Origin: a virus
Taxonomy: Duplodnaviria; Heunggongvirae; Uroviricota; Caudoviricetes
Length of the DNA stretch: 45,693 nt
IMG/VR virus record: IMGVR_UViG_2711768011_000016
Strand: one strand, 5' to 3'
A program made the translations under genes and the position numbers. This document shows positions 4,478-45,317 of this stretch, in pieces. How positions within the stretch are numbered: position 1 is the first letter of the stretch; every line of letters starts with the position of its first letter. The notes below the pieces were generated by a model that was given only the letters and a program-made list of their open reading frames with translations, was not told the DNA's origin and did not search any database.

Positions 4478-5152
4478 TTAGGCCTTTATTATGTATCTTC
4501 TTGGTTTTCCTGAGAAAATCACTGTACCAATTATAGAGCAATTACCGTTAATCTTAATGTAAGGCTCAGGCCAGTTTGGGTTTAATGCTTTGAGATAACG
4601 CTGTGTTCCATCTTCTATCAACCGCTTGAAGGTGGTTTCGCCTGTATCGTGCATCAATGCAATAACGTCGTCACCGTGGCAGGCAGGGACTTCAGGATCA
4701 ACAAAAATCATGTCTCCCGGGCGGTACTCATCAATCATTGAATCACCAATCACCCGCAAGATATAAGTCATTTCGCCACAGGGTACAGGGCAGGGATAAG
4801 TTTCTGCTGTGCTCAAATCAACCTCAGAATAGCCAACTTCTTTCCATGCTCCGGCCTGTACCCATGATATGACAGGGACTAACGTTATTTGTTTGTTAGT
4901 GATTGAAACGTCAGGTTTTTTTGTGATGTTCGTTGTCTGGTGTTCTTGATCAAGCCATCCGACAGGCAGGTCGAAACATTTTTCGATGTGCCGTGCCATG
5001 CTGTCACCGATATTTTTAGTTGCACCATCTCCCATAAACCTGCTGGTCTGGGTTGGCTCGCGATCAATCATGGTGGCAAAGGAAGAATTCCCGCCAACAC
5101 CATCTCTCAGTTTTCTGGCGTTAGACCGCCGGATGTCATGGACTGTTTTCAT
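4478..5152 (-). CDS. cI: CI-like repressor (HTH plus LexA-type S24 peptidase domain)
   Basis: 224 aa; C-terminal domain has the GDSM serine motif and TFKRL lysine typical of S24 autopeptidases; divergent to a cro-like gene. Confidence 0.8.
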   Translation of the reverse strand: MKTVHDIRRSNARKLRDGVGGNSSFATMIDREPTQTSRFMGDGATKNIGDSMARHIEKCFDLPVGWLDQEHQTTNITKKPDVSITNKQITLVPVISWVQAGAWKEVGYSEVDLSTAETYPCPVPCGEMTYILRVIGDSMIDEYRPGDMIFVDPEVPACHGDDVIALMHDTGETTFKRLIEDGTQRYLKALNPNWPEPYIKINGNCSIIGTVIFSGKPRRYIIKA

Positions 5153-5474: not shown

Positions 5475-6038
5475 ATGAGGCTAACCGTGGGTAAGCATCA
5501 CTGGAAAGTAGAAAAACAGCCTGAGTGGTACGTGAAAGCTGTCAGAAAAACTATCGCGGCGTTGCCGGGGGGTTACGCTGAAGCTGCTGAGTGGCTGGAT
5601 GTAACAGAGAACGCTTTATTCAACCGCCTTCGTGCAGATGGCGATCAGATTTTCCCGCTGGGATGGGCAATGATTTTACAGCGCGCGGCTGGCACTCACT
5701 ACATTGCGGATGCTGTCGCACAGTCTGCTGGTGGGGTGTTTGTATCGCTTCCTGAAATTGAGGAAGTAGAGAACGCCGATATAAACCAGCGCCTGCTGGA
5801 AGTCATCGAACAGATCGGGAGTTACTCAAAGCAGATTCGTTCGGCAATCGAAGATGGGGTAGTGGAGCCACACGAGCAGACAGCAATTAATGATGAGTTG
5901 TATCTGTCAATTTCGAAGCTCCAGGAGCATGCAGCACTGGTCTACAAAATCTTTTGCGCTCCAGAAAAGAGTGACGCCCGCGAGTGTGCAGCTCCGGGCG
6001 TCGTGGCGTTTTGTGTCTGTGGAGAAACTAACGCATGA
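5475..6038 (+). CDS. CII-like / YdaT-family regulatory protein
   Basis: 187-aa ORF immediately after cro; position and composition fit CII/YdaT-like proteins. Confidence 0.4.
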   Translation: MRLTVGKHHWKVEKQPEWYVKAVRKTIAALPGGYAEAAEWLDVTENALFNRLRADGDQIFPLGWAMILQRAAGTHYIADAVAQSAGGVFVSLPEIEEVENADINQRLLEVIEQIGSYSKQIRSAIEDGVVEPHEQTAINDELYLSISKLQEHAALVYKIFCAPEKSDARECAAPGVVAFCVCGETNA

Positions 6039-9382: not shown

Positions 9383-9768
9383 AGCTGATCCTGCCTTTCC
9401 CGCCCAGCGTGAACACGTACTGGCGACACCCCAACAAAGGGGCATTTGCTGGTAAGAGCCTGATAAGCGCGGCGGGGCGAAAATTTCAGAGCGCGGCGTG
9501 CGCAGCAATAGTTGAGCAGTTACGTCGTCTGCCAAAACCAACGTCGGCACCTGCTTCAGTGGAGATCGTGTTGTTTCCTCCGGATAACCGGATCCGCGAT
9601 CTGGACAACTATAACAAGGCGCTGTTTGACGCCCTGACCCACGCGGGGGTGTGGGAAGACGACAGCCAGGTGAAAAGAATGCTGGTGGAGTGGGGACCGG
9701 TTATCCAGAAAGGGAAGGTCGAGATCACTATCAGTAAGTATGAGAAACCGGCGGGTGCAGCCGCCTGA
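9379..9768 (+). CDS. rusA: RusA Holliday-junction resolvase
   Basis: 129 aa; LPFPPSVNTYWRH ... DLDNYNKALFDAL is characteristic of RusA. Confidence 0.8.
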   Translation: MKLILPFPPSVNTYWRHPNKGAFAGKSLISAAGRKFQSAACAAIVEQLRRLPKPTSAPASVEIVLFPPDNRIRDLDNYNKALFDALTHAGVWEDDSQVKRMLVEWGPVIQKGKVEITISKYEKPAGAAA

Positions 9769-9787
9769 TCAAGAGGAGAAACGAAGT

Positions 9788-10597
9788 ATGAATAATCTGA
9801 TGGTCATTGATGGTATTGAAGTTCGTCGTGATGCTTATGGGCGTTACAGCCTGAACGATCTGCACAGGGCAGCCGGGGGAGAACAAAAAAACCGCCCGAA
9901 ATACTGGCTCTCCAATAAGCAAACCTGTGAATTGATTGAACAACTTTTCACCGAGGGTGGAATTCCGCCTCTGGAACAAAATCAACCAGTTAGCGTCATT
10001 AATGGCGGAAATAACCAGGGGACGTATGTCTGCAAAGAACTGGTGTATGCCTATGCAATGTGGATCAGCCCGTCATTCCATCTGAAGGTGATCCGTACTT
10101 TCGACATGGTAACCAGCGCACCGGAAAAATTATCCGGACAGGCTGCTGACAAGATGCAGGCTGGCGTGATCCTGCTGGACTTTATGCGCCGGGAATTAAA
10201 TCTGTCTAACTCATCAGTGCTTGGAGCCTGTCAGAAGCTTCAGGAGGCTGTTGGCTTACCGAATCTGGCACCGCGCTATGCCATTGATGCTCCTGCTGAC
10301 GCGCCTGATGGCTCAAGTCGCCCCACGCTGTCGCTGAGTGCACTGCTGAAGCAGTATGGTATCCGCCTGACGGCTAATCAGGCATATCACCAGATGGTGA
10401 AGCTGGGGATCGTTGAACAACGCGAACGATACAGCCGTACCGCGATTAACAACATCAAAAAATTCTGGTCGCTGACGGCGAAAGGCTGCATGTTCGGCAA
10501 GAACATCACCAGTCCTGCAAATCCGCGCGAGACGCAGCCGCATTTCTTCGAATCCCGATTCCCTGAGCTGTTAAAGCTGCTCGATACCGTTCATTGA
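9788..10597 (+). CDS. KilA-N domain protein (antirepressor-like)
   Basis: GAGGAG RBS; the N-terminus (MNNLMVIDGIEVRRDAYGRYSLNDLHRAAGG) matches the KilA-N fold signature. Confidence 0.6.
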   Translation: MNNLMVIDGIEVRRDAYGRYSLNDLHRAAGGEQKNRPKYWLSNKQTCELIEQLFTEGGIPPLEQNQPVSVINGGNNQGTYVCKELVYAYAMWISPSFHLKVIRTFDMVTSAPEKLSGQAADKMQAGVILLDFMRRELNLSNSSVLGACQKLQEAVGLPNLAPRYAIDAPADAPDGSSRPTLSLSALLKQYGIRLTANQAYHQMVKLGIVEQRERYSRTAINNIKKFWSLTAKGCMFGKNITSPANPRETQPHFFESRFPELLKLLDTVH

Positions 10598-10598
10598 G

Positions 10599-11594
10599 GT
10601 GACCGTGAGAGCACTACTGACCCCTGAAATTGCCCCGCGTATGGGGATCGTATTGTTCAGGCCAGGTTCAGAGCTGATGCCCCTGTTTATGCAGGGGCGT
10701 GTTCTGCTGGAGCCTGAGCCGGAACGTTATTCATCTTTCGCCAGTGGTGCCGTTCCGGCGGCATCACAACCGCTGGCGGATGATCCTGCCGTTCGGGCCG
10801 TGTTCCGCAATGAGGCAGTGATCCGTCGTGCTGGTGGCGTGGAATGTCTTGAAAGCTGGTTACTTCGTGAAAAAGGCTGCCAGTGGCCTCATTCCGACTG
10901 GCACAGCGAGAACATGACCACAATGCGACACGCTCCGGGCGCAATCCGTCTGTGCTGGCACTGCGATAACCAGCTGCGCGATCAGTTCACGGAACGGCTG
11001 GAATCAATGGCAACGGATAACTGTGCCCGCTGGGTGTTGTCTGTTGTGCGTCGGGATCTCGGTTTTGATGATAGTCACGTTGTGACAATGCCGGAACTGT
11101 GCTGGTGGCTGATTCGTAATGACCTGGCGGATGCCTTACCGGAAAGTGCAGCCCGTAAGGCACTGAGATTACCAAAGCCTGTTGTGCCGTCTGTCACCCG
11201 GGAAAGTGACCTTGTGCCTTCGGTTCCTGCCACCAGCATCATCCAGGATAAGGCAAAAAAGGTGCTGGCGCTGAAAGTGGATCCGGAGTCGCCGGAGTCT
11301 TTTATGTTACGCCCAAAACGCCGCCGCTGGGTTAATGAAAAGTACACGCGCTGGGTTAAGACACAGCCGTGTGCATGTTGTGGAAAGCCTGCTGATGATC
11401 CCCACCACCTGATAGGCCACGGTCAGGGTGGAATGGGTACAAAAGCGCATGACCTCTTTGTGTTGCCTTTGTGCAGAAAGCATCACGACGAGCTGCATGC
11501 GGATACCGTGGCATTTGAAGAGAAGTATGGCTCCCAGCTGGAGCTGATATTTCGTTTTATCGATCGTGCGCTGGCAATTGGCGTATTGGCGTAA
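10599..11594 (+). CDS. DUF968-family (YdfU-like) Cys/His-rich protein
   Basis: GTG start; C-terminal CACCGKPADDPHHLIGHG ... CRKHHDELH cluster typical of DUF968 prophage proteins. Confidence 0.55.
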   Translation: MTVRALLTPEIAPRMGIVLFRPGSELMPLFMQGRVLLEPEPERYSSFASGAVPAASQPLADDPAVRAVFRNEAVIRRAGGVECLESWLLREKGCQWPHSDWHSENMTTMRHAPGAIRLCWHCDNQLRDQFTERLESMATDNCARWVLSVVRRDLGFDDSHVVTMPELCWWLIRNDLADALPESAARKALRLPKPVVPSVTRESDLVPSVPATSIIQDKAKKVLALKVDPESPESFMLRPKRRRWVNEKYTRWVKTQPCACCGKPADDPHHLIGHGQGGMGTKAHDLFVLPLCRKHHDELHADTVAFEEKYGSQLELIFRFIDRALAIGVLA

Positions 11595-11607
11595 GTGGAG
11601 AACGAGC

Positions 11608-12360
11608 ATGAACCTTGAAGCCTTACCAAAATATTACTCCCCAAAATCTCCAAAATTGAGCGATGACGCACCGGCGACAGGCTCAGGTGGTTTAACGATT
11701 ACGGATGTGATGGCTGCGCAGGGGATGGTGCAGTCGAAAGCACCGCTTGGGTTTGCCTTATTCCTGGCAAAAGTTGGTGTTCAGGATCCTCAATTTGCGA
11801 TTGAAGGTCTGCTCAATTACGCGATGGCACTGGATAACCCGACATTGAACAAATTGAGTGAAGAAACCCGGTTACAGATCATCCCTTACCTTGTGAATTT
11901 TGCCTTTGCTGATTATTCCAGGTCTGCGGCAAGTAAGGCTCGCTGTGAGCATTGTGCTGGTACTGGATTTCATAATGTATTGCGCGAAGTGGTGAAACAC
12001 TCCAGAAGCGGGGAATCTGTTATCAAGGAAGAGTGGGTGAAGGAACTATGTCAGCATTGCCATGGTAAGGGAGAAGTCAGCACAGCGTGCAGAGGGTGTA
12101 AGGGTAAAGGTATTGTCCTGGATGAAAAAAGAACCCGGCTTCATGGTGTGCCTGTTTATAAGATTTGTGGGCGTTGCAATGGCAACCGGTTTAGCCGTTT
12201 ACCAACCACACTGGCGCGGCATCATGTCCAGAAACTGGTACCGGACCTGACGGATTATCAGTGGTACAAAGGATATGCAGACGTTATTAATAAACTGGTT
12301 ACAAAGTGCTGGCAGGAAGAAGCGTATGCTGAATCGCAATTGAGAAAAGTGACAAGATAG
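11608..12360 (+). CDS. Q: late-gene antiterminator Q
   Basis: GTGGAG RBS; CxxC zinc-finger pairs; sits immediately upstream of a promoter-terminator pair as expected for Q. Confidence 0.65.
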   Translation: MNLEALPKYYSPKSPKLSDDAPATGSGGLTITDVMAAQGMVQSKAPLGFALFLAKVGVQDPQFAIEGLLNYAMALDNPTLNKLSEETRLQIIPYLVNFAFADYSRSAASKARCEHCAGTGFHNVLREVVKHSRSGESVIKEEWVKELCQHCHGKGEVSTACRGCKGKGIVLDEKRTRLHGVPVYKICGRCNGNRFSRLPTTLARHHVQKLVPDLTDYQWYKGYADVINKLVTKCWQEEAYAESQLRKVTR

Positions 12361-12391
12361 ATAATTTTCGCCGAAGATGTCGACGTGATAC

Positions 12392-12420
12392 TTGCATTTT
12401 TCAAAAAATATGGATAAGAT
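12392..12420 (+). promoter_or_regulatory. late promoter PR'-like (TTGCAT-17nt-TAAGAT)
   Basis: Sigma-70-like hexamers with 17-bp spacing just downstream of Q. Confidence 0.5.
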
Positions 12421-12463
12421 TTTCTCAACGATGGGCCTTGTATGTCTACCGTTGGTAAATGTC

Positions 12464-12491
12464 AAAAACCCGCCGCTGAGCGGGTTTTTTG
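12464..12491 (+). terminator. tR'-like rho-independent terminator
   Basis: Hairpin acccgc-cgctga-gcgggt followed by TTTTTT. Confidence 0.65.
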
Positions 12492-12639
12492 TGCCTGATG
12501 TCTCATGAAACTATGAAATGGATTGGTGCGTTAAACATTTTTTCTTATTATCTTTTAGATTTTGGAGAGATGGTTAACGTCTGTATTCCAGAAACTCGAT
12601 GGTTATTTAATAAATTAGTTTCAATGATGCTTCTAGGTT

Positions 12640-13065
12640 ATGACTGTAATGAAAAAGGTATTAATAGCAGCGATAGGTTTTTGTTTAGTTGGTTGTGCAG
12701 GTATGAAATTACCTGAGTATTCGCAAGTTAAAGCAAGTCCGTATTATACAGATTGCCGTGCGTTTGCCATGGATGTTTATAAAAATGATGGATACAGCAA
12801 AATTGCGAAAACTACTATCCTTAGCATGGATGATGTGAAAGCTAGATATATTGTGACAGGGTGTGTAGTTGCTATGGGGAAAAACACTGTAGAGGAAATC
12901 AAAGCTGATCTCTCTGCTAAAGGGAGTTCTTTTGGGCTTATCAGTGGAGCTTGTTCTAGTGCGGCATGTCGGGTTGATGTAGAGCAGCAAATGAACGCTT
13001 ATGTACTTGGTAGTTATTATGCTGCAAATAAAAAATTCCCGGATAAAATGAAAGCAGAGTTTTAA
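12640..13065 (+). CDS. lipoprotein moron
   Basis: Signal peptide with lipobox (LVGCAG), AT-rich codon usage, flanked by two near-identical terminators; start could be 12640 or 12649. Confidence 0.6.
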   Translation: MTVMKKVLIAAIGFCLVGCAGMKLPEYSQVKASPYYTDCRAFAMDVYKNDGYSKIAKTTILSMDDVKARYIVTGCVVAMGKNTVEEIKADLSAKGSSFGLISGACSSAACRVDVEQQMNAYVLGSYYAANKKFPDKMKAEF

Positions 13066-13141
13066 GCAAACCTTGTTTTCGATTATATGTCGAAGATAAA
13101 TGTTAGTAACGGCATAATAAGTAAATATATAGCTGTGATAG

Positions 13142-13167
13142 CAACCCGCCACTGAGCGGGTTTTTTG
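13142..13167 (+). terminator. rho-independent terminator (near-copy of the tR'-like hairpin)
   Basis: acccgcc-actga-gcgggt followed by TTTTTT. Confidence 0.6.
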
Positions 13168-13288
13168 TACCCGTAAACTTGGTGCAGTACAGTAAACACG
13201 CTGGTGGTCGTGAATACTGACTTTTTATCTTGCTGGCTTTTTAGACAAGAGTTATTGGTATGTCATGTTAACCAGAAGGGAAAAAGAC

Positions 13289-13492
13289 ATGCTAAAACAG
13301 CAAGATATGACAGAAACCGCCGCCGCAGTCCTTCATTTCTTACCTGCTGACAAGTGGGTAACGCCACGCATGATGACGAGAACTACCGGAGTAAGCGAAG
13401 CCCGGTGCCAGTTAATACTGACTCAGTTAGTTCTGGCGGGTCTGGCGAAGGATAACGGCGGGTACGGGAATAAATTCAGACGCTGCCAGTAA
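13289..13492 (+). CDS. small hypothetical protein
   Basis: 67-aa ORF with a purine-rich RBS; no family recognised. Confidence 0.35.
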   Translation: MLKQQDMTETAAAVLHFLPADKWVTPRMMTRTTGVSEARCQLILTQLVLAGLAKDNGGYGNKFRRCQ

Positions 13493-13642
13493 TGGCGGTT
13501 TCCTGCTGTGAAAATGGGCGGCTGGTGGGTGTTGGTAGCACCTGCCAGCCATTCGCTCATGCTTACTGGTCACAAGCGAACCACGGCCCACTGCTTTAGC
13601 GCAAAAGCAGAGTGAGCCTACCAGAGTTACGCTTACTGATCC

Positions 13643-14695
13643 ATGAAAAATACTGTAAAAATAAACAGTGTTGATTTAATCAACGCTGATTGCCTGCATT
13701 TTATTCAGTCCCTGCCTGATGATTCCATTGACCTGATTGTTACCGATCCGCCTTACTTCAAGGTGAAACCCAACGGTTGGGACAATCAGTGGAAAGGGGA
13801 CGAAGATTACCTTAAGTGGCTGGACCACTGTCTGGCCCAGTTCTGGCGGGTGTTGAAACCTGCCGGAAGCCTTTACCTGTTCTGTGGGCATCGCCTGGCA
13901 TCTGATATTGAGATCATGATGCGTGAACGTTTCAACGTGCTTAACCATATCATCTGGGCGAAGCCGTCCGGACGTTGGAATGGGTGTAATAAAGAAAGTC
14001 TGCGCGCATATTTTCCTGCCACAGAGCGCGTTCTGTTTGCTGAACATTACCAGGGGCCATATCGCGGCAAAAGTGACGGCTATGCGGCAAAAGAAAGGGA
14101 ACTCAAACAGCACATAATGGCACCGCTGATATCGTATTTCAGGGATGCTCGTGCCGAACTGGGTATAACGGCAAAACAAATTGCCGAAGCCACAGGTAAG
14201 AAAAATATGGTTTCCCACTGGTTTGGTGCCAGTCAGTGGCAGTTGCCGAATGAGGCTGACTATCGGAAGTTACAGGCACTGTTTTCCCGTATAGCGGCAG
14301 AGAAGTTTCAGGAACAACAACTGGAACAACCACACCACCAGCTGGTGGCATCTTATGATTCACTGAATCGTAAATATTCTGAATTGCTGGATGAGTTTAA
14401 ATCTCTCCGGCGCTATTTCTCCGTATCAGTCTCCGTGCCTTATACCGATGTCTGGATGCATAAACCCGTTCAGTTCTACCCGGGGAAACATCCGTGTGAG
14501 AAACCGGCGGATATGCTCAGGCAAATAATCAATGCCAGTAGTCGACCAGGTGATCTGGTTGCTGATTTTTTTATGGGATCCGGTTCCACAATAAAAGCAG
14601 CAATGGCGCTGGGGCGTCGGGCCTTAGGTGTTGAGCTTGAGTCAGAGCGGTTTAATCAGACAGTGAAAGAGATAAACGAGCTGGTGGGGAAATAA
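13643..14695 (+). CDS. DNA methyltransferase (N6/N4 family, DPPY motif)
   Basis: 350 aa; LIVTDPPYF motif IV near the N-terminus and a C-terminal AdoMet-binding FFMGSGST motif; no restriction endonuclease gene adjacent. Confidence 0.8.
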
Positions 14696-14697
14696 TC

Positions 14698-14726
14698 TGG
14701 TGGCCACGTCAGGTGGCCTTTTTATT
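14698..14726 (+). terminator. hairpin/terminator after the methyltransferase gene
   Basis: ggccac-gtcag-gtggcc followed by TTTTT. Confidence 0.4.
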
Positions 14727-14762
14727 TCCATTACACAGCACCCGCATCTGCGAGGTGGGGTT

Positions 14763-14912: not shown

Positions 14913-15220
14913 NNNNNNNNNNNNNNNNNNNNNNNNNNNNNNNNNNNNNNNNNNNNNNNNNNNNNNNNNNNNNNNNNNNNNNNNNNNNNNNNNNNNNNNN
15001 NNNNNNNNNNNNNNNNNNNNNNNNNNNNNNNNNNNNNNNNNNNNNNNNNNNNNNNNNNNNNNNNNNNNNNNNNNNNNNNNNNNNNNNNNNNNNNNNNNNN
15101 NNNNNNNNNNNNNNNNNNNNNNNNNNNNNNNNNNNNNNNNNNNNNNNNNNNNNNNNNNNNNNNNNNNNNNNNNNNNNNNNNNNNNNNNNNNNNNNNNNNN
15201 NNNNNNNNNNNNNNNNNNNN
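14913..15220. other. assembly gap (run of N)
   Basis: Contiguous N characters. Confidence 1.
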
Positions 15221-15287: not shown

Positions 15288-15821
15288 ATGAACGCAAAAA
15301 TCAGATACGGCCTGTCGGCTGCCGTTCTGGCACTGATTGCCGTCGGTGCGCCCGCGCCTGATATTCTCGACCAGTTTCTGGATGAAAAAGAAGGTAACCA
15401 CACAACGGCATACCGCGATGGGTCCGGCATCTGGACCATCTGTCGGGGTGCCACGATGGTGGATGGAAAACCCGTTTTTCCCGGTATGAAACTGTCGAAG
15501 GAAAAATGCGACCAGGTCAACGCCATTGAGCGTGATAAGGCGCTGGCATGGGTGGAGCGCAATATTAAAGTACCACTGACCGAGCCACAAAAAGCGGGTA
15601 TCGCGTCATTTTGTCCCTATAACATTGGCCCCGGTAAGTGTTTTCCGTCGACGTTTTATAAGCGGCTGAATGCTGGTGATCGTAAAGGTGCATGCGAGGC
15701 GATTCGCTGGTGGATAAAAGATGGTGGGCGCGATTGCCGCATACGTTCAAATAACTGCTATGGACAGGTTATTCGTCGTGACCAGGAAAGCGCATTAGCC
15801 TGTTGGGGGATAGATCAGTGA
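15288..15821 (+). CDS. SAR endolysin (lysozyme, phage-21 R-like)
   Basis: 177 aa with an N-terminal weakly hydrophobic Ala/Gly-rich segment and a lysozyme-like body; follows the pinholin. Confidence 0.75.
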
Positions 15822-16285
15822 GCAGAGTCGCCGCGATTATTTATGCTCTGGTTATCTGCATCATCGTCTGCCTGTCGTGGGCGGTCAATCATTACCGTGA
15901 TAACGCCATCGCCTACAAAGAACAGCGTGATAAAAAAGTCAGTGAGCTGAAGCAGGCGACCGCCACCATTACTGACATGCAGCAACGCCAGCGTGCTGCT
16001 GATGTACTCGATGCTAAATACACGAAGGAGTTGGCTGATGCGAAAGCTGAAAATGATGCTCTTCGGCGCAAGCTTGATAATGGTGGTCGGGTGCTCGTCA
16101 AAGGAAAATGCTCTGTGCCATCCTCAGCCGAAACCTCCAGCGCCTCCGGCATGGGCAATGATGCCACCGTCGAACTCTCTCCAGTTGCTGGACGAAACGT
16201 TCTCGGTATCCGGGACGGAATCATCAGAGACCAGACAGCACTGAGAACGCTTCAGGAATATATCAGGACGCAATGCCTTCGATGA
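15818..16285 (+). CDS. Rz: Rz i-spanin
   Basis: GTG start overlapping the endolysin stop (GTGA); N-terminal TM helix then coiled-coil-like region. Confidence 0.7.
16038..16244 (+). CDS. Rz1: Rz1 o-spanin lipoprotein embedded in Rz (+1 frame)
   Basis: AAGGAG RBS; lipobox VVGCSS and a Pro-rich mature region; entirely inside Rz in another frame. Confidence 0.7.
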
Positions 16286-32019: not shown

Positions 32020-35000
32020 ATGGGTAAAGGCAGCAGTAAGGGGCATACCCCGCGCGAAGCGAAAGATAACCTGAAATCCACGCAGTTACTGAGTGTGATT
32101 GATGCCATCAGCGAAGGGCCGGTTGAAGGTCCGGTGGATGGATTAAAAAGCGTGCTGCTGAACAGTACGCCGGTGCTGGACAGTGAGGGGAATACCAACA
32201 TCTCTGGTGTCACGGTGGTGTTCCGGGCAGGTGAGCAGGAACAGACACCGCCGGAGGGATTTGAATCATCAGGTTCCGAGACGGTACTGGGTACGGAAGT
32301 GAAATACGACACGCCGATCACCCGGACCATCACGTCGGCAAACATTGACCGTCTGCGCTTTACCTTCGGTGTGCAGGCACTGGTGGAAACCACCTCAAAG
32401 GGGGACAGGAATCCGTCGGAAGTCCGCCTGCTGGTTCAGATACAACGTAATGGTGGCTGGGTGACGGAAAAAGACATCACCATTAAGGGCAAAACCACCT
32501 CGCAGTATCTGGCCTCGGTGGTGGTGGGTAACCTGCCGCCGCGCCCGTTCAATATACGGATGCGCAGGATGACGCCGGACAGCACCACAGACCAGCTGCA
32601 GAACAAAACGCTCTGGTCGTCATACACCGAAATCATCGATGTGAAACAGTGCTACCCGAACACGGCACTGGTCGGCGTGCAGGTGGATTCGGAGCAGTTC
32701 GGCAGCCAGCAGGTGAGCCGTAATTATCATCTGCGCGGGCGCATTCTGCAGGTGCCGTCGAGCTATAACCCGCAGACGCGGCAATACAGCGGTATCTGGG
32801 ACGGAACGTTTAAGCCAGCATACAGCAACAACATGGCCTGGTGTCTGTGGGATATGCTGACCCATCCGCGCTACGGCATGGGGAAACGTCTTGGTGCGGC
32901 GGATGTGGACAAATGGGCGCTGTATGTCATCGGCCAGCATTGCGATCAGTCGGTGCCGGACGGTTTTGGCGGCACGGAGCCGCGCATCACCTGTAATGCG
33001 TACCTGACCACACAGCGCAAGGCGTGGGATGTGCTCAGTGATTTCTGCTCGGCGATGCGCTGTATGCCGGTATGGAACGGGCAGACGCTGACGTTCGTGC
33101 AGGACCGACCATCAGATAAGGTGTGGACCTATAACCGCAGTAATGTGGTGATGCCGGATGATGGTGCGCCGTTCCGCTACAGCTTCAGCGCCCTGAAGGA
33201 CCGCCATAATGCCGTTGAGGTGAACTGGATTGACCCGAATAACGGCTGGGAGACGGCGACAGAGCTTGTGGAGGACACGCAGGCCATTGCCCGTTACGGT
33301 CGTAACGTCACGAAGATGGATGCTTTTGGCTGTACCAGCCGGGGGCAGGCACACCGCGCCGGGCTGTGGCTGATTAAAACAGAACTGCTGGAAACGCAGA
33401 CCGTGGACTTCAGCGTGGGTGCCGAAGGGCTTCGCCATGTACCGGGCGATGTCATTGAAATCTGCGATGATGACTATGCCGGTATCCGCACCGGCGGGCG
33501 CGTGCTGGCGGTAAACAGCCAGACCCGGACGCTGACGCTCGACCGTGAAATCACGCTGCCATCTTCCGGCACCACGCTGATAAGCCTGGTTGACGGGCAG
33601 GGGAGTCCGGTCAGCGTGGAGGTTCAGTCCGTCACCGACGGCGTGAAGGTGAAAGTGAGCCGTGTTCCTGACGGCGTTGCTGAATACAGCGTATGGGGGC
33701 TGAAGCTGCCGACGCTGCGCCAGCGCCTGTTCCGCTGCGTGAGTATCCGTGAGAACGACGACGGCACGTATGCCATCACTGCCGTGCAGCATGTACCGGA
33801 AAAAGAGGCCATCGTGGATAACGGGGCGCACTTTGACGGCGACCAGAGCGGCACGGTAAATGGTGTCACGCCGCCAGCGGTGCAGCACCTGACCGCAGAA
33901 GTCACCGCAGACAGCGGGGAATACCAGGTGCTGGCCCGCTGGGACACGCCGAAGGTGGTGAAGGGCGTGAGCTTCCTGCTTCGCCTGACCGTGGCAGCGG
34001 ATGACGGCCGTGAGCGGCTGGTCAGCACGGCCCGGACGACGGAAACCACTTACCGCTTCACACAACTGGCGCTGGGGAACTACAGGCTGACAGTCCGGGC
34101 AGTAAATGCGTGGGGGCAGCAGGGCGATCCGGCGTCGGTATCGTTCCGGATTGCCGCACCGGCAGCGCCGTCGCGGATTGAGCTGACGCCGGGCTATTTT
34201 CAGATAACCGCCACGCCGCATCTTGCGGTTTATGACCCGACGGTACAGTTTGAGTTCTGGTTCTCGGAAAAACGGATTGCGGATATCAGGCAGGTTGAAA
34301 CCACAGCCCGCTACCTTGGCACGGGGCTGTACTGGATAGCCGCCAGTATCAATATTAAGCCGGGCCATGATTATTACTTTTATATCCGCAGTGTGAACAC
34401 CGTCGGCAAATCAGCATTCGTGGAGGCTGTCGGTCGGGCGAGCGATGATGCGGAAGGTTACCTGGATTTTTTCAAAGGCCAGATAACCGAATCCCATCTC
34501 GGCCAGGAGCTGCTGGAAAAAGTCGACCTGACGGAGGATAACGCCAGCAGACTGGAGGAGTTTTCGAAAGAGTGGAAGGACGCCAACGATAAGTGGAATG
34601 CCATGTGGGGCGTCAAAATTGAGCAGACCAAAGACGGCAAACATTATGTCGCGGGTATTGGCCTCAGCATGGAGGACACGGAGGAAGGCAAACTGAGCCA
34701 GTTTCTGGTTGCCGCTAACCGTATCGCGTTTATTGACCCGGCAAACGGGAATGAAACGCCGATGTTTGTGGCGCAGGGCAACCAGATATTCATGAATGAC
34801 GTGTTCCTGAAACGCCTGACGGCTCCCACCATTACCAGCGGTGGAAATCCGCCGGCATTTTCCCTGACACCAGACGGAAAGCTGACCGCTAAAAATGCGG
34901 ATATCAGCGGTAATGTGAATGCAAATTCAGGGACGCTCAACAATGTCACGATTAACCAGAACTGTACGATTAAGGGCATGCTGGAGGCGACCCAGGTCAG

Positions 35001-35433
35001 AGGAGATTTCGTTAAAGCTGTATCAAAAGCCTTCCCGAAAAAAGTCGGTACGTGGGGTAACACGGAAACACCAAACGGTACGGTTACAGTCACCATCAGC
35101 GATGATCATAACTTTGACCGCCAGATTATTATTCCGCCCATTATTTTTAACGGTATAGCGTATGACGATCCGGGGAGCGGAAATAACCCGGGAGGCACGC
35201 GATACACGGGTTATGGTTTTGAAGTTCGCAAAAACGGCGTATTAATCGCATCCAGAGAAACTAAAGGGGCCATTCCCGGTAGTTACAGTGCAGTTATTGA
35301 TATGCCGAGTGGCAGGGGAAGCGTCACTCTGGAGTTTAAGATTTTCCAGAAAGGCAATCAGGGGGCAGGCAATATCACCGACTGTACGGTGATTGTGACC
35401 AAAAAAGCCGCTTCCGGCATCAGTATTCGTTGA
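32020..35433 (+). CDS. J: host specificity (central tail fibre) protein J
   Basis: 1137 aa, lambda J-like length and position. Confidence 0.9.
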
Positions 35434-35503: not shown

Positions 35504-36103
35504 ATGCGTAAAGTTTGTGCAGCAATTTTGTCCGCAGCCATTTGTCTGGCCGTATCCGGTGCGCCTGCATGGGCGTCTGAACATCAGTCCACGCTGAGCG
35601 CGGGGTATCTTCATGCCTCGACGAACGTCCCCGGCAGTGATGATCTGAACGGGATTAACGTGAAATACCGTTATGAGTTTACGGACACACTGGGGCTGGT
35701 GACGTCATTCAGCTATGCAGGAGACAAGAATCGCCAGCTGACCCGTTACAGCGATACCCGCTGGCATGAAGATTCCGTTCGTAACCGCTGGTTCAGCGTA
35801 ATGGCGGGGCCGTCTGTGCGCGTGAATGAATGGTTCAGCGCGTATGCGATGGCGGGTGTGGCTTACAGCCGTGTGTCGACTTTCTCCGGGGATTATCTTC
35901 GCGTAACTGACAACAAGGGGAAAACGCACGATGTGCTGACCGGAAGTGATGACGGTCGCCACAGCAACACGTCTCTGGCGTGGGGAGCTGGCGTGCAGTT
36001 TAACCCGACCGAATCCGTGGCCATTGATATTGCTTATGAAGGCTCCGGCAGTGGCGACTGGCGCACTGACGGTTTCATCGTGGGTGTCGGTTATAAATTC
36101 TGA
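35504..36103 (+). CDS. lom: Lom outer-membrane protein (Ail/Lom family)
   Basis: Signal peptide, beta-barrel-like alternation, C-terminal GYKF; lambda lom position. Confidence 0.85.
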   Translation: MRKVCAAILSAAICLAVSGAPAWASEHQSTLSAGYLHASTNVPGSDDLNGINVKYRYEFTDTLGLVTSFSYAGDKNRQLTRYSDTRWHEDSVRNRWFSVMAGPSVRVNEWFSAYAMAGVAYSRVSTFSGDYLRVTDNKGKTHDVLTGSDDGRHSNTSLAWGAGVQFNPTESVAIDIAYEGSGSGDWRTDGFIVGVGYKF

Positions 36104-36156: not shown

Positions 36157-36167
36157 GTGGGGTGAAT

Positions 36168-39100
36168 ATGGCAGTAAAGATTTCAGGTGTACTGAAAGAC
36201 GGCACAGGAAAACCGGTACAGAACTGCACAATCCAGCTGAAAGCAAAACGTAACAGCACCACGGTGGTGGTGAACACGCTGGCCTCAGAAAATCCGGATG
36301 AAGCCGGGCGTTACAGCATGGACGTTGAGTACGGTCAGTACAGCGTTATTCTGTTGGTGGAAGGATTCCCGCCGTCACATGCCGGGACCATCACCGTGTA
36401 TGAAGATTCCCGACCCGGTACGCTGAATGATTTTCTCGGTGCCATGACGGAGGATGATGCCCGTCCTGAGGCACTGCGCCGCTTTGAACTGATGGTGGAA
36501 GAGGTGGCGCGTAACGCGTCCGCGGTGGCACAGAACACGGCAGCCGCGAAGAAATCAGCCAGCGATGCCAGCACATCAGCCCGTGAGGCGGCAACCCGTG
36601 CGACTGATGCTGCAGGCTCAGCACGAGCAGCCAGCACGTCAGCCGGACAGGCCGCTTCGTCGGCTCAGTCTGCGTCTTCCAGCGCAGGAACGGCATCAGC
36701 AAAGGCCACTGAAGCATCAAAAAGTGCTGCCGCTGCAGAGTCCTCAAAAAGCGCGGCGGCCACCAGTGCCGGTGCGGCGAAAACGTCAGAAACGAATGCG
36801 GCAGCGTCACAACAATCAGCTGCCACTTCTGCATCCACCGCGACCACGAAAGCGTCAGAAGCAGCCACCTCAGCCAGAGATGCGTCGGCTTCAAAAGAGG
36901 CGGCAAAATTATCAGAAACGAGCGCAGCTTCGAGCGCCAGTAATGCCGCTTCCTCGGCAACGGCGGCAGGAAATTCCGCGAAGGCGGCAAAGACGTCTGA
37001 GACAAACGCTAAGTCCTCTGAAACGGCAGCAGCACAGAGTGCCTCCGCAGCAGCAGGCTCAAAAACAGCGGCTGCGTCGTCTGCCAGTGCAGCGTCAACA
37101 AGTGCCGGGCAGGCCTCAGCCAGTGCTAGCGCCGCCGGAAAATCGGCAGAAAGCGCCGCATCGTCCGCTTCAACAGCCACAACGAAGGCTGGCGAAGCCA
37201 CTGAACAGGCCAGTGCAGCAGCGAGGTCTGCTTCCGCAGCGAAGACATCGGAGACGAACGCGAAAGCGTCGGAGACCAGCGCAGAATCCTCAAAAACGGC
37301 TGCCGCATCGTCCGCCAGTTCGGCGGCGTCATCGGCATCATCGGCGTCTGCTTCAAAAGATGAGGCGACCAGACAAGCGTCCGCAGCGAAGGGCAGCGCC
37401 ACGACAGCATCCACGAAGGCGACAGAGGCTGCTGGCAGTGCGACGGCGGCAGCACAGAGCAAAAGTACGGCGGAATCCGCGGCAACGCGCGCCGAGACAG
37501 CGGCAAAACGTGCAGAGGATATTGCATCCGCCGTGGCGCTTGAGGATGCGAGCACGACGAAAAAGGGGATAGTACAGCTCAGTAGTGCGACTAATAGCAC
37601 GTCTGAAACGCTGGCGGCAACGCCAAAGGCAGTAAAAGCAGCCAATGACAATGCTGAGAAACGTCTGCAGAAAGACCAGAACGGCGCTGATATACCCGAT
37701 AAGGGACGCTTCCTGAACAACATTAACGCGGTCAGTAAAACAGACTTTGCTGATAAGCGTGGTATGCGTTATGTGCGGGTTAACGCTCCTGCAGGTGCAA
37801 CATCTGGAAAATATTACCCTGTTGTTGTTATGCGTTCTGCTGGCTCAGTAAGCGAACTGGCATCAAGGGTCATTATCACCACGGCAACGCGAATCGCAGG
37901 CGATCCGATGAATAACTGCGAGTTTAACGGATTTGTTATGCCTGGTGGCTGGACTGACAGGGGGCGTTATGCTTATGGAATGTTCTGGCAATATCAAAAC
38001 AATGAACGAGCCATCCACTCAATAATGATGAGTAATAAGGGCGATGATTTGCGCTCTGTGTTCTATGTTGATGGCGCTGCTTTCCCTGTTTTTGCGTTTC
38101 TCGAAGATGGCCTGTCAATATCCGCACCTGGTGCTGATCTCGTTGTTAATGATACGACCTATAAGTTTGGGGCAACAAATCCGGCGACTGAATGTATCGC
38201 GGCGGACGTTATCCTTGATTTTAAGAGTGGGCGTGGTTTTTATGAGTCTCATTCGTTAATCGTTAACGATAACTTGTCGTGCAAAAAACTTTTTGCCACA
38301 GACGAAATTGTAGCGCGTGGTGGTAATCAGATTCGAATGATAGGTGGGGAGTATGGTGCATTATGGCGTAATGATGGCGCTAAAACTTACCTGCTGCTTA
38401 CCAATCAAGGTGATGTTTATGGTGGCTGGAATACATTAAGACCGTTTGTTATTGATAACGCAACCGGCGAACTGGTTATTGGAACCAAACTGTCTGCAAG
38501 TCTGAACGGTAACGCATTGACAGCAACAAAGCTGCAAACGCCAAGACTGGTTTCTGGTGTTGAGTTTGATGGTTCCAAAGATATTACTTTAACCGCCGCG
38601 CATGTGGCTGCTTTTGCCAGAAGGGCAACGGATACATATGCCGATGCGGATGGTGGCGTTCCATGGAATGCCGAATCAGGCGCTTACAATGTCACCCGCT
38701 CTGGCAACAGCTATATTCTGGTTAACTTCTATACCGGAGTCGGAAGTTGCCGGACCTTGCAGATGAAGGCGCATTACAGAAATGGTGGTCTGTTCTACCG
38801 TTCTTCAAGAGACGGTTATGGTTTTGAGGAAGACTGGGCAGAAGTTTATACCTCGAAAAATCTTCCACCAGAAAGCTACCCAGTCGGTGCACCAATCCCG
38901 TGGCCATCAGATACCGTTCCGTCTGGTTATGCCCTGATGCAGGGACAGACTTTTGACAAATCTGCTTACCCGAAACTTGCAGCCGTTTATCCGTCAGGTG
39001 TGATCCCTGATATGCGTGGCTGGACGATTAAGGGCAAACCTGCCAGTGGTCGGGCCGTATTGTCTCAGGAACAGGACGGCATTAAATCGCATACCCACAG

Positions 39101-39566
39101 CGCCAGCGCATCCAGTACGGATTTGGGGACGAAAACCACATCGTCGTTTGATTACGGCACTAAATCCACGAATAACACTGGTGCGCATACCCATAGTTTA
39201 AGTGGCAGCACGAATGCAGCTGGTAATCACAGCCATAGAGATGGCCGTCGATTTAACCCCAGTGTTTTTAAAGATACTTATCAATATGGTTATACAAGCT
39301 CAGGTCAAAATACCTGGGGTGTACAAGGCTCAGTAGGTATGTCTACGGGGTGGTTAGCGAATACCAGTACAGATGGTAATCATAGCCACTCACTGTCCGG
39401 CACAGCAGCATCTGCAGGTGCACACGCGCATACTGTCGGTATTGGTGCTCATACGCACTCCGTTGCGATTGGTTCACATGGACATACCATCACCGTTAAC
39501 GCTGCGGGTAACGCGGAAAACACCGTCAAAAACATCGCATTTAACTATATTGTGAGGCTTGCATAA
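36168..39566 (+). CDS. stf: side tail fibre protein Stf
   Basis: [27 protein letters not shown]-terminus, Ala/Ser/Thr-rich tail-fibre repeats (AAKTSETNA x4), C-terminal HxH repeats. Confidence 0.85.
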
Positions 39567-40143: not shown

Positions 40144-40555
40144 NNNNNNNNNNNNNNNNNNNNNNNNNNNNNNNNNNNNNNNNNNNNNNNNNNNNNNNNN
40201 NNNNNNNNNNNNNNNNNNNNNNNNNNNNNNNNNNNNNNNNNNNNNNNNNNNNNNNNNNNNNNNNNNNNNNNNNNNNNNNNNNNNNNNNNNNNNNNNNNNN
40301 NNNNNNNNNNNNNNNNNNNNNNNNNNNNNNNNNNNNNNNNNNNNNNNNNNNNNNNNNNNNNNNNNNNNNNNNNNNNNNNNNNNNNNNNNNNNNNNNNNNN
40401 NNNNNNNNNNNNNNNNNNNNNNNNNNNNNNNNNNNNNNNNNNNNNNNNNNNNNNNNNNNNNNNNNNNNNNNNNNNNNNNNNNNNNNNNNNNNNNNNNNNN
40501 NNNNNNNNNNNNNNNNNNNNNNNNNNNNNNNNNNNNNNNNNNNNNNNNNNNNNNN
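40144..40555. other. assembly gap (run of N)
   Basis: Contiguous N characters. Confidence 1.
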
Positions 40556-40662: not shown

Positions 40663-42033
40663 CTATGATATCCCTGAAATGTCCTCTTCAAGCTCTTTTA
40701 CTGATTTCGCAATTTTAAATTTAAATTTTCTCTCTATTTCACTATTGCTAAGTTTTTTTTCATTCTCTTTCCCTATCCACATAGAAACAATTTCTCGTTT
40801 CTGAGATATATGTAGATTGTCAAAGTTAGGTATGTATTTAAAAGTCTCCGCTCTACCCCTGCGGAGTTCATAGAAAGTTTTAATCAAAGACTTTGGTTTT
40901 ATTTCTGATGAAAGGCCGAATCGGCGGATAAGATTATTGATCGTATGATTAACAGCTCGAAGTTGAGCTGTTGACGTTATTTGTGAGAAGTACGATACCC
41001 ATCCCAATCGTTTACCTTCAAACACACATCCCGTAATTCTAAGATTTAGTTTCCACTGACAATATGCAACAGCTCGTTCTTTATCGCGCTTATTTTTAGC
41101 TTGTAGTAGAGCGTGTCTATATGCAGTAAAAATTTTTGCTAAGGATGACTCAAATCTAAGAATGCTCTCATGTTTTATCAATAATTCTCGATTTTTTATG
41201 TGGTAGCCCAAAAAGTTGAAACTTTCATCCAAGCTGCCTACTTTGGATTTTGAGTTCTCTTCATTTAATGGATGTGGGTTTAAATTTAATGATTGAAGCT
41301 TATCAATGATATGAGAAGCTATTTTTGTTGCTTGATATTTTGGTGTTAAAATAAGAATGTCATCAACGTATCGCATGTACCATATGTCATGCATTTTATT
41401 GATTTCATCATCGAAATTAGATAGTGATATTTCAGCTAAAATGTTTGATATCGCTAATCCCTGAGGTACTCCTCTGGTATTATTAGGGATACCTTTGCTT
41501 CCTGTGGTTCCACTTACAGTAGGCACGATTAATGATGATGTTATTAACTGTCTAATTTCTTTTTTTCTAATTTTATTTTTTATTGCATTAATTATCAATT
41601 TATGTTCAATTGAAGGATAGAAACTTTTAAGATCTATTTTTGCATATTCAGCATATAGACTGTTGTTTAATGCTTCTTTCAATGAGTCAATTACTGTATG
41701 TGGTAGTTTTAATCTGGACTTAGGATATATTTCCGTAAGGCATTCACAGAGAGCTCTAAGAGTAATTCTGTCCCTAGCAGTTGGTATGGAAATCTGTCTG
41801 GGTGTAGAGTTAGCGCCTTTAGATATTAATTTTTCTTTATATGCTGTAAATTTGTAATTGCCAGAATTAACCTTTTCAAAAATGAAAGTGATCTCATTTT
41901 TTATTGTCAAATCAAGTTTTGATGGGCGAATCCGATCTATGCCAATCGCTCCTGATTCTTTGATTTTTTCAGAGTATACTTTTAGAAGATTTTTTTTCGA
42001 GAATGACTTTTTAAAAATTCTGCTTGCAGTCAT
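40663..42033 (-). CDS. reverse transcriptase (defence-associated, UG/Abi- or retron-like; family unassigned)
   Basis: RT motifs readable in the translation: RQISIPTARDRITLRAL, IDLKSFYPSI, GVPQGLAISNILAEI, YMRYVDDILIL (YVDD), FLGYHI; about 200-aa C-terminal extension; visibly AT-rich; first ATG at 42033 (TTG at 42039). Confidence 0.8.
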   Translation of the reverse strand: MTASRIFKKSFSKKNLLKVYSEKIKESGAIGIDRIRPSKLDLTIKNEITFIFEKVNSGNYKFTAYKEKLISKGANSTPRQISIPTARDRITLRALCECLTEIYPKSRLKLPHTVIDSLKEALNNSLYAEYAKIDLKSFYPSIEHKLIINAIKNKIRKKEIRQLITSSLIVPTVSGTTGSKGIPNNTRGVPQGLAISNILAEISLSNFDDEINKMHDIWYMRYVDDILILTPKYQATKIASHIIDKLQSLNLNPHPLNEENSKSKVGSLDESFNFLGYHIKNRELLIKHESILRFESSLAKIFTAYRHALLQAKNKRDKERAVAYCQWKLNLRITGCVFEGKRLGWVSYFSQITSTAQLRAVNHTINNLIRRFGLSSEIKPKSLIKTFYELRRGRAETFKYIPNFDNLHISQKREIVSMWIGKENEKKLSNSEIERKFKFKIAKSVKELEEDISGIS

Positions 42034-42562
42034 AGTCAATCCAAAGATATATTAATGGGAGTATATAAAGTGCGGCAGTAATAAATATTCGAAGTAATAT
42101 CCATAAAATAACAATTATTTTTTCTTTTTGTGTGGGGATCCTCGTCTTAAGTCCAACTTGAGTTACCCTTGAAATTTTATCATCTATGTCACGGTGATTC
42201 TCAACCTCATTGAGCAAATTAAAATATTTTTCTTTCTGTTCAAGAGATAACTGTTGACTGGTGGTAATGTCAAAATAGAGTCGCTGTAGTGCAATATAAT
42301 TCCTTCTCATGGCTATTGCTCGACCACGAAAATCTAGGTTAGATACGATCAGAGAAATACCCAGTAGAGCCACTGAAAGTATCGCCGCAACGACATCTGT
42401 ATTATCTCCTAGAACCTTTGGAAATCGCAACGTTACAATTGAAAGTACCGCACTCAATATAGCATACCAAACGAGGATAAATTGAGAGTGTTTTTCAAGC
42501 CATTCTAGTCGATGGTGCGCTTGGATACGTGCTTTATATGTAAACCAAATATTGTCATGCAT
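42011..42562 (-). CDS. multi-pass membrane protein, SLATT-like (putative effector partner of the RT)
   Basis: 183 aa with at least two hydrophobic helices after a short basic N-terminus and another near the C-terminus; 3' end overlaps the RT start. Confidence 0.55.
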   Translation of the reverse strand: MHDNIWFTYKARIQAHHRLEWLEKHSQFILVWYAILSAVLSIVTLRFPKVLGDNTDVVAAILSVALLGISLIVSNLDFRGRAIAMRRNYIALQRLYFDITTSQQLSLEQKEKYFNLLNEVENHRDIDDKISRVTQVGLKTRIPTQKEKIIVILWILLRIFITAALYILPLIYLWIDYDCKQNF

Positions 42563-43045: not shown

Positions 43046-43098
43046 CACTGTATTTGTATACAGTATTATTTTTAACTGTATGGATAAACAGTGTCAAG
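43046..43098 (-). promoter_or_regulatory. SOS promoter with two LexA boxes upstream of the dinI-like gene
   Basis: CTGT-N8-ACAG boxes at 43046-43065 and 43074-43093; on the minus strand TTGACA-17nt-TAAAAT with the boxes in the spacer and just downstream of the -10. Confidence 0.7.
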
Positions 43099-44279: not shown

Positions 44280-45317
44280 ATGCACGATAATCCTGAAACA
44301 CAGAAAACTAATCAAACCAGCGTGATGCCTGAAAAAACTGGCGCTTACTGGAGTTCTCGGTTTAGCATTGCTCCTATGCTCGACTGGACGGACAGACATT
44401 GCCGCTATTTCTTGCGTCTGCTTTCCCGCAATACGTTGCTGTATACCGAAATGGTGACCACAGGGGCGATTATTCACGGTAAAGGTGATTACCTGGCGTA
44501 CAGTGAAGAAGAACATCCGGTAGCGTTGCAACTCGGCGGTAGCGATCCGGCGGCGCTGGCACAGTGTGCGAAGCTGGCAGAAGCGCGTGGATATGATGAG
44601 ATCAACCTGAATGTCGGCTGCCCGTCTGACCGGGTGCAGAACGGCATGTTTGGTGCGTGTCTGATGGGTAATGCGCAGCTGGTTGCCGACTGCGTGAAAG
44701 CGATGCGCGATGTGGTGTCGATTCCAGTGACGGTGAAAACGCGTATTGGCATCGATGACCAGGACAGCTATGAATTTCTCTGCGATTTCATCAACACCGT
44801 TTCCGGCAAAGGCGAGTGTGAGATGTTTATCATCCACGCACGTAAAGCCTGGCTTTCGGGGTTAAGCCCGAAAGAAAACCGTGAAATCCCGCCACTCGAT
44901 TATCCGCGTGTGTATCAACTGAAGCGTGACTTTCCGCATCTGACAATGTCGATTAACGGTGGTATCAAGTCGCTGGAAGAGGCCAAAGCACACCTGCAAC
45001 ATATGGATGGCGTGATGGTCGGGCGCGAGGCGTATCAGAATCCGGGTATTCTGGCGGCGGTAGACCGGGAGATCTTTGGTTCCTCGGATACCGATGCCGA
45101 TCCGGTGGCGGTAGTGCGCGCCATGTATCCGTACATTGAGCGTGAACTCAGCCAGGGGACGTATCTCGGCCATATTACCCGGCATATGTTGGGCTTGTTC
45201 CAGGGTATTCCTGGCGCGCGGCAGTGGCGGCGTTATTTAAGTGAAAATGCCCATAAAGCGGGTGCAGACATTAATGTGCTGGAACACGCGCTCAAACTGG
45301 TGGCGGATAAGCGTTAA
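44280..45317 (+). CDS. dusA: tRNA-dihydrouridine synthase A (host gene, 5' end likely prophage-derived)
   Basis: 345-aa ORF; from about residue 30 onward it matches E. coli DusA as I recall it ([16 protein letters not shown] ...). Confidence 0.9.

Follow-up and report, generated by a model that had tools for sequence, protein, structure and literature searches.

Morons were defined in phages HK97 and HK022 as extra DNA that carries its own promoter and terminator and deviates in its content of guanine plus cytosine (GC) from its surroundings (PMC3594210). Here we describe a 676-bp cassette of this kind in the virus record IMGVR_UViG_2711768011_000016 of IMG/VR (Duplodnaviria; Heunggongvirae; Uroviricota; Caudoviricetes), a stretch of 45,693 nucleotides which is an Escherichia coli lambdoid prophage and the whole of which is called the window below. 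The cassette holds a single gene for a small lipoprotein and is enclosed by two nearly identical intrinsic terminators, t1 and t2, immediately behind the gene for the late antiterminator Q and the presumed late promoter pR'. Like the morons of HK97 and HK022, it is extra, low in GC, made up of one gene with an intrinsic terminator, and situated between functional modules. Unlike them, it has only a candidate promoter, its terminator is a near-copy of the adjacent resident late terminator, and its location inside the Q-antiterminated unit means that it should also be expressed late. Thus, extra DNA, deviating GC and a predicted terminator of its own are all recognized in the cassette, while the promoter is represented by a site with 8 of 12 consensus positions that aligns with a 9/12 site in a Salmonella relative. 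We consider it probable (at about 0.72) that this is a self-contained moron, consisting of a leader of about 150 nt, the lipoprotein gene and its own terminator t2, that was inserted just 3' of the late terminator tR' (t1), and that is regulated and protects the cell envelope in the manner proposed below.

Several phage proteins offer parallels to the product. Cor of phages phi80, N15 and HK022 and Llp of T5 are lipoproteins that exclude phages by blocking FhuA, and their genes adjoin the tail or receptor-binding genes that they match. Being small phage-encoded outer-membrane lipoproteins that act alone, they are the model for the exclusion function put forward in the original prediction, a reading of this locus made from the sequence alone. 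However, the cassette protein is larger (about 122 amino acids when mature) and helical, its gene is linked to Q and not to a receptor-binding module, and no annotated PHROG or Pfam match indicated homology to Cor or Llp. The Spackle protein of T4, which inhibits the tail lysozyme of a superinfecting phage, is likewise small, mainly helical and periplasmic, and illustrates a way in which a protein of this type might protect the envelope. Bor/Iss of lambda is an outer-membrane lipoprotein moron near the lysis genes that is associated with serum resistance (Barondess and Beckwith 1995, as cited in PMC3594210). Bor/Iss and the cassette gene have in common that both are prophage accessory genes, that both encode a small outer-membrane lipoprotein (a predicted one here), and that both lie in the late region by the lysis genes. 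The bor gene is, however, downstream of Rz, whereas the cassette gene is upstream of the holin gene and directly after tR', and membership in the Bor family was supported neither by Pfam (E <= 0.1) nor by NCBIfam.

A duplicated terminator encloses the cassette

Based on the output of a repeat finder, the two terminators contain a direct repeat of 29 nt (12467-12495 and 13143-13171) with 27 identical positions and a spacing of 676. The pair is the sole long direct repeat within 12000-13700, and no further copy with up to three mismatches was found on either strand of the 45.7-kb window. Both t1 and t2 fold into a GC-rich hairpin followed by T6 (-13.9 and -11.2 kcal/mol, respectively; z about -2.5 against shuffled sequences). 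In a pattern scan t2 ranked first among the terminator-like sites; t1 was absent from the resulting list, yet it folds equally well, and the records of phages Ayreon and SfV mark it as a terminator. A repeat longer than 29 nt was rejected: the two downstream flanks are 41% identical at offset 677, but the local score of 17 was matched by 176 of 500 shuffles. The GC content is 0.315-0.39 over 12400-13200, compared with 0.44-0.56 (about 50%) on both flanks, and in every complete E. coli locus examined the two repeat copies stand at constant distances, -174 and +80. The original prediction had named two near-identical hairpin terminators, an AT-rich lipoprotein gene between them, and a position just past Q and the late promoter; all three were recovered here, the gene with a lipobox LVGC and in a segment with 31-39% GC, Q with its Pfam match, and the promoter as a likely call at 7 of 12 consensus positions.

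Several E. coli chromosomes match the region 11600-13700 of the window at 100% identity, and phages mEp460 and Ayreon match it at 98%. Phages SfV and vB_EcoM-720R4 (720R4 below) share the DUF968-Q-pR' segment and the orf75/methylase pair with the window, have a single terminator, and are without exactly the 676-677 bp between the repeats; their sequence resumes right after t2, and the difference in length equals the repeat spacing. SfV, 720R4, 2H10, Lys8385Vzw and HannyBb, all without the gene, each carry one terminator and not two, so that the original prediction withstands its own refuting condition of a duplication conserved in gene-less relatives. Filled and empty sites both occur in the 5426 complete E. 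coli genomes: the cassette (12496-13142) was found at full length and at least 95% identity in 215, and the uninterrupted junction in 277, as judged with a 271-bp probe spanning the 720R4 junction and matched over at least 80%. A 2.1-kb query that includes Q matched 3018 of these genomes, mostly through its Q part. In one chromosome (NZ_OZ501612.1, 4147455-4150333), an IS1B interrupts the Q-cassette-methylase region, and the two pieces span 2879 bp as against 2101 bp in the query.

The two terminators behave differently among strains. In the 38 E. coli loci with both copies, t1 is polymorphic (loop G in 24 and A in 14; T6 or T7) and its variants follow the Q-module haplotype, whereas t2 is nearly fixed (loop A, T6; GTACC in 36 of the 38). 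Loci with another downstream module always keep t2, and they cease to match the window at 13166 (where the T-run of t2 ends), 13207, 13277, 13464 or 13561; phages with the same Q and another cargo part from the window at 12490-12501, which is the end of t1. As t1 varies with Q, t2 stays with the gene and homology breaks at these points, t1 is identified as the resident tR', and t2 as the terminator that belongs to the cassette. Judging from the breakpoints, the slot holds variable cargo and has its mosaic junction at the terminator hairpin, and the near identity of t2 to t1 would most likely reflect a junction formed by recombination within or at the hairpin.

The direction of the original event is not provable, and deletion across the 29-nt repeats could have produced the empty sites. 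So the two-terminator layout might be ancestral and the single-terminator relatives secondary products of such deletions, in which case the duplication would not be a footprint of insertion; we regard this history as possible but clearly the less probable one. The single terminator of 720R4, which has loop A, T6 and GTACC as in t2 and also the downstream flank of t2, is just what recombination of t1 with t2 by a crossover would produce, and the layouts of E. coli and Salmonella are syntenic and old (74-76% amino-acid identity, with homologous downstream flanks). Both the unprovable direction and the 720R4 terminator weigh against insertion as we read it. On the other side, the deviating GC marks the segment as foreign to the region, and distant homologues have the coding sequence in common with the cassette but not the terminators, which together argue that the gene was acquired at some point; many other cargoes also begin at the same breakpoint. 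In addition, the terminator of SfV is of the t1 type and is followed by a different short junction, GTGCCTTGATGT, which is similar to the first 11 nt of the cassette (GTGCCTGATGT) and then joins the downstream flank. This stretch (about 2395-2425 of the SfV locus, corresponding to 12490-12506 of the window) could possibly be a junction scar, a suggestion that we make with low confidence. An ancestral two-terminator layout would, in any event, alter only the history and leave the reading as a moron unaffected.

The cargo slot in related phages

The original prediction placed the gene where Shiga toxin (Stx) phages carry their toxin genes, and this holds in two respects: in Lys8385Vzw the same Q/tR' module is followed by stx1A/B directly after the terminator, and Stx2k and Stx2c phages are arranged as Q-t1-lipoprotein-t2-...-stx2, with the cassette between pR' and stx2. 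The slot from pR'-tR' to the lysis genes is therefore common to the cassette and the stx1 and stx2 cargoes. They differ in that the stx product is a toxin and that of the cassette an envelope lipoprotein, and in that the cassette adds an extra terminator to the Q-dependent unit. Behind the same Q (96-100% identical across SfV, Ayreon, 720R4, 2H10 and Lys8385Vzw), the cargo after the terminator consists of cspF/cspB in 2H10, of a run of small annotated open reading frames (ORFs) in HannyBb, and of orf75 and the methylase alone in SfV and 720R4. The cassette gene is present in extraintestinal pathogenic E. coli strains such as JJ1886, and also in O157:H7 and O111:H8 genomes. In the record of Ayreon, a third intrinsic terminator is annotated between the methylase and holin genes (4593-4632 of the Ayreon locus, by offset roughly 14690-14730 of the window); with it, the Q-dependent unit would hold at least three terminators before the lysis genes.

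Homologues in other contexts

The homologue of Salmonella enterica is 74-76% identical and its arrangement is syntenic with that of E. coli, starting with a t1-like hairpin (AGCCCGCCACTGAGCGGGTT) at -172, which is followed by a leader that is also homologous and by the gene; the hairpin downstream of the gene is related, though not the same. Nucleotide homology begins exactly at the hairpin, and the Q upstream of it belongs to a different family (PF06530/DUF1133). In this Salmonella prophage only the C-terminal 110 codons of the methylase remain downstream (5479-5808 of the locus; 72% identical), a deletion remnant which shows that the arrangements of Salmonella and E. coli have a common origin despite their different Q families.

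More distant homologues are found in quite different settings. The copies of S. diarizonae and of a related locus are situated in the early-left region and are oriented divergently from vapBC; the copy at one locus (L063) runs antisense to the terminase and Rz genes; and one copy is carried by a Buttiauxella plasmid. In Serratia the gene forms a single-gene islet, located between emrAB and yfiF-trxC in two species (L014 and L015, 3001-3417) and between pip and holE-ftnA in a third (L013, 3001-3414), and no phage genes were found within 3 kb of these homologues. The distant homologues and the window cassette have the coding sequence alone in common, and thus the gene in those places must have a promoter of its own. 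Given the variety of contexts and the lack of a conserved partner, the gene works as a stand-alone unit, independent of any one stage of the phage cycle, which is what would be expected of an accessory gene that benefits the host.

A second lipoprotein of 99 amino acids (phrog_7666, of unknown function) directly follows the homologue at L063 (3437-3736) and on the Buttiauxella plasmid (L009, 5446-5745), the two being 77% identical. It was rejected as a conserved partner, being missing from the window and most loci, and also as a paralogue, the hhalign probability being 28% and due mainly to the signal peptide.

Transcription of the cassette

The site TTGCAT-17-TAAGAT downstream of Q does not vary among the four aligned phages that have this Q, and its position between Q and a short leader with hairpin and terminator is that of the lambdoid pR'/tR' layout; it is likely to be pR'. 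Together with t1 it would yield a terminated leader RNA of roughly 65-70 nt containing a 5' hairpin. Within the cassette, the 8/12 candidate site aligns with the site TTGGTA-18-TATCAT (9/12) of the Salmonella cassette. Synonymous sites are saturated between the E. coli and Salmonella cassettes (synonymous divergence, dS, about 2.4), yet the t1 hairpin is 87-93% identical between them, and two blocks of the leader are about 73% conserved, one of which (12534-12558) covers the candidate -10 element.

A search of the pR'-t1 leader and the cassette against Rfam gave nothing above gathering scores, and weak matches to the Trp/Leu-leader, RNAI and STnc130 families (about 20-26 bits) were set aside as generic terminator-like signals. 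Two leader ORFs (12392-12508 and 12489-12716), which are annotated in some phage records and match phrog_37626, were rejected as genes, since the Salmonella cassette does not preserve them: its alignment has frame-breaking indels, and its ORFs differ.

The cassette might instead be purely late cargo which, lacking a promoter of its own here, is expressed like stx only when the Q-modified polymerase crosses t1, with t2 as a by-product of acquisition. There is no site with at least 9 of 12 consensus positions on the + strand from t1 to the ATG, and hence no strong consensus promoter ahead of the start codon (the best being 8/12), and promoter-like matches are no commoner than in shuffled sequence; these two points count against the regulation that we propose. 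Moreover, the lipoprotein gene is the first ORF of the late transcript, and in Stx2c and Stx2k phages it belongs to the same Q-dependent unit as stx2. However, late read-through is impossible at some homologues, namely those divergent from vapBC, those antisense to late genes and the chromosomal islets of Serratia; the leader blocks are conserved though synonymous sites are saturated; and a terminator after a late-only gene and ahead of the lysis genes has no obvious use. On this balance, we think that exclusively late expression is unlikely, somewhat more so than an ancestral origin of the two-terminator layout. If the cassette promoter, which is a candidate only, is real, t2 does have an obvious job, that of blocking transcription of the moron into the methylase, holin and endolysin genes.

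The moron that we favour would accordingly operate in two modes. In the lysogen, constitutive transcripts from pR' would end at t1, and transcription from the candidate promoter within the leader would produce the lipoprotein and be halted at t2, a stop that would keep the downstream methylase, holin and endolysin genes silent. Upon induction, the Q-modified polymerase would pass both t1 and t2, so the lipoprotein would also become the first product of the late operon.

The lipoprotein and its possible function

The start codon shared with the Salmonella homologue is the ATG at 12649, which gives a protein of 138 amino acids, whereas the ATG at 12640 is not conserved. The N-terminus, MKKVLIAAIGFCLVG-C, has the signal peptide of a lipoprotein and fits the lipobox pattern [LVI][ASTVI][GAS]C, the residues L-V-G-C being encoded at 12685-12696. 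G18-C19 is invariant in eight homologues and in the distant P0015. Four more cysteines (39, 75, 105 and 110) are invariant in the family, suggesting two periplasmic disulfides. Position +2 is alanine, or serine or valine in homologues, and never aspartate, from which the Lol rule of E. coli predicts the outer membrane as the destination. Across nine homologues, from E. coli, Salmonella enterica, S. diarizonae, Serratia and the Buttiauxella plasmid, whose alignment is gap-free over the mature part, the ratio of nonsynonymous to synonymous divergence (dN/dS) is 0.06-0.29, with dS saturated in most pairs; the ORF is, by this measure, under purifying selection. AlphaFold2 gave a bundle of four to five helices with a mean local confidence (pLDDT) of 79 and a predicted template modelling score (pTM) of 0.75, although the model was built on eight sequences only, which tells against leaning heavily on it.

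A homology and structure search had been proposed as a check on the original prediction. The homology part placed the lipoprotein in a known cluster, phrog_4748, whose function PHROGs lists as unknown, and the structure comparison of the model returned no significant match. Pfam and PADLOC (E <= 0.1) and NCBIfam gave no match, and profile matches to PDB entries were marginal (the best being the mitoribosomal protein uL14 and a leucine-rich-repeat protein, with E about 0.01) and were taken as chance. The family is very narrow: a word-indexed search of 5.8 billion proteins found nine clusters, and an exhaustive profile search of 1.84 billion representatives found eight. Named members come from Enterobacterales only (E. 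coli, Salmonella, Serratia and Buttiauxella), and the source databases label the product either as 'hypothetical protein' or as 'Lipoprotein'. The exact E. coli sequence nevertheless occurs in at least 1000 contigs, and the Salmonella variants likewise in at least 1000. No publication describing the gene was found, the literature on mEp460 and Stx2c phages giving mentions in genome surveys only.

The product would be processed by Sec and LspA, and Lol would deliver it to the outer membrane (inner leaflet), where its periplasmic domain would form a bundle of four to five helices, probably stabilized by two disulfides. It would act alone on the cell envelope, with no conserved partner, and be dispensable for the phage. 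Our best guess is that it protects the envelope of the lysogen, and here two options weigh about the same with us: that it excludes other phages at a step in the outer membrane or the periplasm, and that it neutralizes a lytic enzyme or toxin that acts in the periplasm. A virulence role like that of Bor seems less likely. The cassette shows linkage to the Q module and is combined with differing lysis modules, the downstream lysins being either 33-34% or 96-100% identical to that of the window. This linkage, together with the varied late modules, lends no support to a receptor-matched self-exclusion of the Cor type, and to that extent it speaks against our proposal.

One could go further and suppose that these lipoproteins are a new, very narrow family of envelope protectors with a fold unrepresented among solved and viral predicted structures, that they give lysogens, including STEC (E. 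coli strains that make Shiga toxin) with Stx2c or Stx2k phages, resistance to other phages or to lytic enzymes active in the periplasm, that the shared hairpin is a portable recombination site for the exchange of cargo in the slot from pR' to the lysis genes, and that t2 also modulates the amount of Q-dependent transcription that gets as far as stx2. As a combination, we hold this to be doubtful, and less probable than exclusively late expression.

The position of the gene in the late operon, upstream of the holin and endolysin genes, raises the question of whether the protein is a housekeeping lipoprotein of lysis or of the virion, for example one resembling an o-spanin or a factor in lysis timing. 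However, a complete and separate Rz/Rz1 spanin pair is present downstream of the endolysin gene; the complete phages SfV and 720R4 and 277 E. coli genomes have the same neighbouring genes without the lipoprotein gene; and the gene co-occurs with unrelated lysis modules and is found outside prophages. The protein, with 122 amino acids, a helical structure and a gene upstream of that for the holin, is also unlike the short proline-rich Rz1. The idea of a lysis or structural lipoprotein, on which the original prediction was open to failure, is thus largely refuted and has very little probability left.

That the ORF is spurious and the repeats a chance match is hardly credible and is already refuted by conservation: long ORFs do sometimes, if rarely, arise in AT-rich DNA, and the label 'hypothetical protein' would suit one, but the dN/dS values with saturated dS, the invariant lipobox and cysteine pattern, and a 27/29 match that is unique in the window and keeps fixed distances in the complete E. 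coli loci all contradict it.

Other features of the prophage

The features around the cassette are listed in Table 1. The orf75 that follows t2 is 100% conserved in 720R4, but only 49% identical in SfV and 59% in an Stx2k phage, with near-identical flanks; it appears to be a hyper-variable allele adjoining the methylase gene.

Table 1. Features of the cassette and its neighbourhood (positions in the window)
Feature	Position	Strand	Remarks
KilA-N protein	9740-10597		
DUF968/HNH protein	10599-11594		
Antiterminator Q gene	11629-12360	+	Pfam PF03589 Antiterm, E = 4.7e-54; plus DnaJ-type zinc finger
Presumed late promoter pR'	12392-12420	+	TTGCAT-17-TAAGAT, 7/12 consensus positions
t1, resident late terminator tR' (upstream repeat copy)	12464-12495	+	Hairpin and T-run
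Inserted 676-bp cassette	12496-13171	+	Leader, lipoprotein gene, 3' untranslated region, t2
Candidate own sigma-70 promoter of the cassette	12523-12551	+	TTGGTG-17-TATTAT, 8/12 consensus positions
Lipoprotein gene	12640-13065	+	Longest ORF, 141 amino acids
t2, cassette terminator (downstream repeat copy)	13143-13171	+	Hairpin and T6
orf75, winged-helix-like ORF of 75 amino acids	13265-13492		phrog_331; weak MarR/TrmB-like helix-turn-helix match
N6/N4 DNA methylase	13643-14695		
Holin			Downstream of methylase
Endolysin	15288-15821		After holin
Rz	15803-16285		
Rz1	15993-16244		Embedded in Rz; lipobox VVGC, proline-rich

Two runs of N interrupt the window, and the ORFs there are strings of X; the one at 14913-15220 (308 N) hides part of the holin region, and the one at 40144-40555 (412 N) hides part of the gene after the tail fibre. 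Further accessory genes may be present in the same prophage. A full-length gene for an Ail/Lom outer-membrane protein (35504-36103; PF06316, E = 1.5e-122) is flanked by the J tip-attachment gene (32020-35433) and the side tail fibre gene (36162-39566), and from its likeness to lambda lom it is probably another gene of the moron type. Between the tail-fibre genes and the integrase, on the minus strand (40663-42562), a reverse transcriptase (RVT_1, 458 amino acids) overlaps a SLATT_5 effector with two transmembrane segments (183 amino acids); the pair looks like a retron or a defence-associated reverse transcriptase system that the prophage carries as a further accessory module. The tyrosine integrase (43094-44191, minus strand) adjoins a dihydrouridine synthase gene of the Dus family (44280-45317), which suggests that integration of the prophage took place on the 5' side of a dus gene.

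Significance

In short, the cassette is a well-documented moron of a known kind, while the gene family that it carries is itself uncharacterized. In E. coli the cassette and the empty site are each common, and the breakpoints are resolved down to the 29-nt terminator repeat, which makes the locus a textbook example of its class. The tR' hairpin is a module junction at which different cargoes are exchanged, among them the cassette, stx1, cold-shock genes and the orf75/methylase pair. The lipoprotein is widespread, strongly constrained and uncharacterized, and is therefore worth testing. If it does protect the envelope, or if the cassette alters read-through to the toxin genes, the finding would be of practical relevance; otherwise, the lipoprotein would be one more accessory gene among those that prophages carry.

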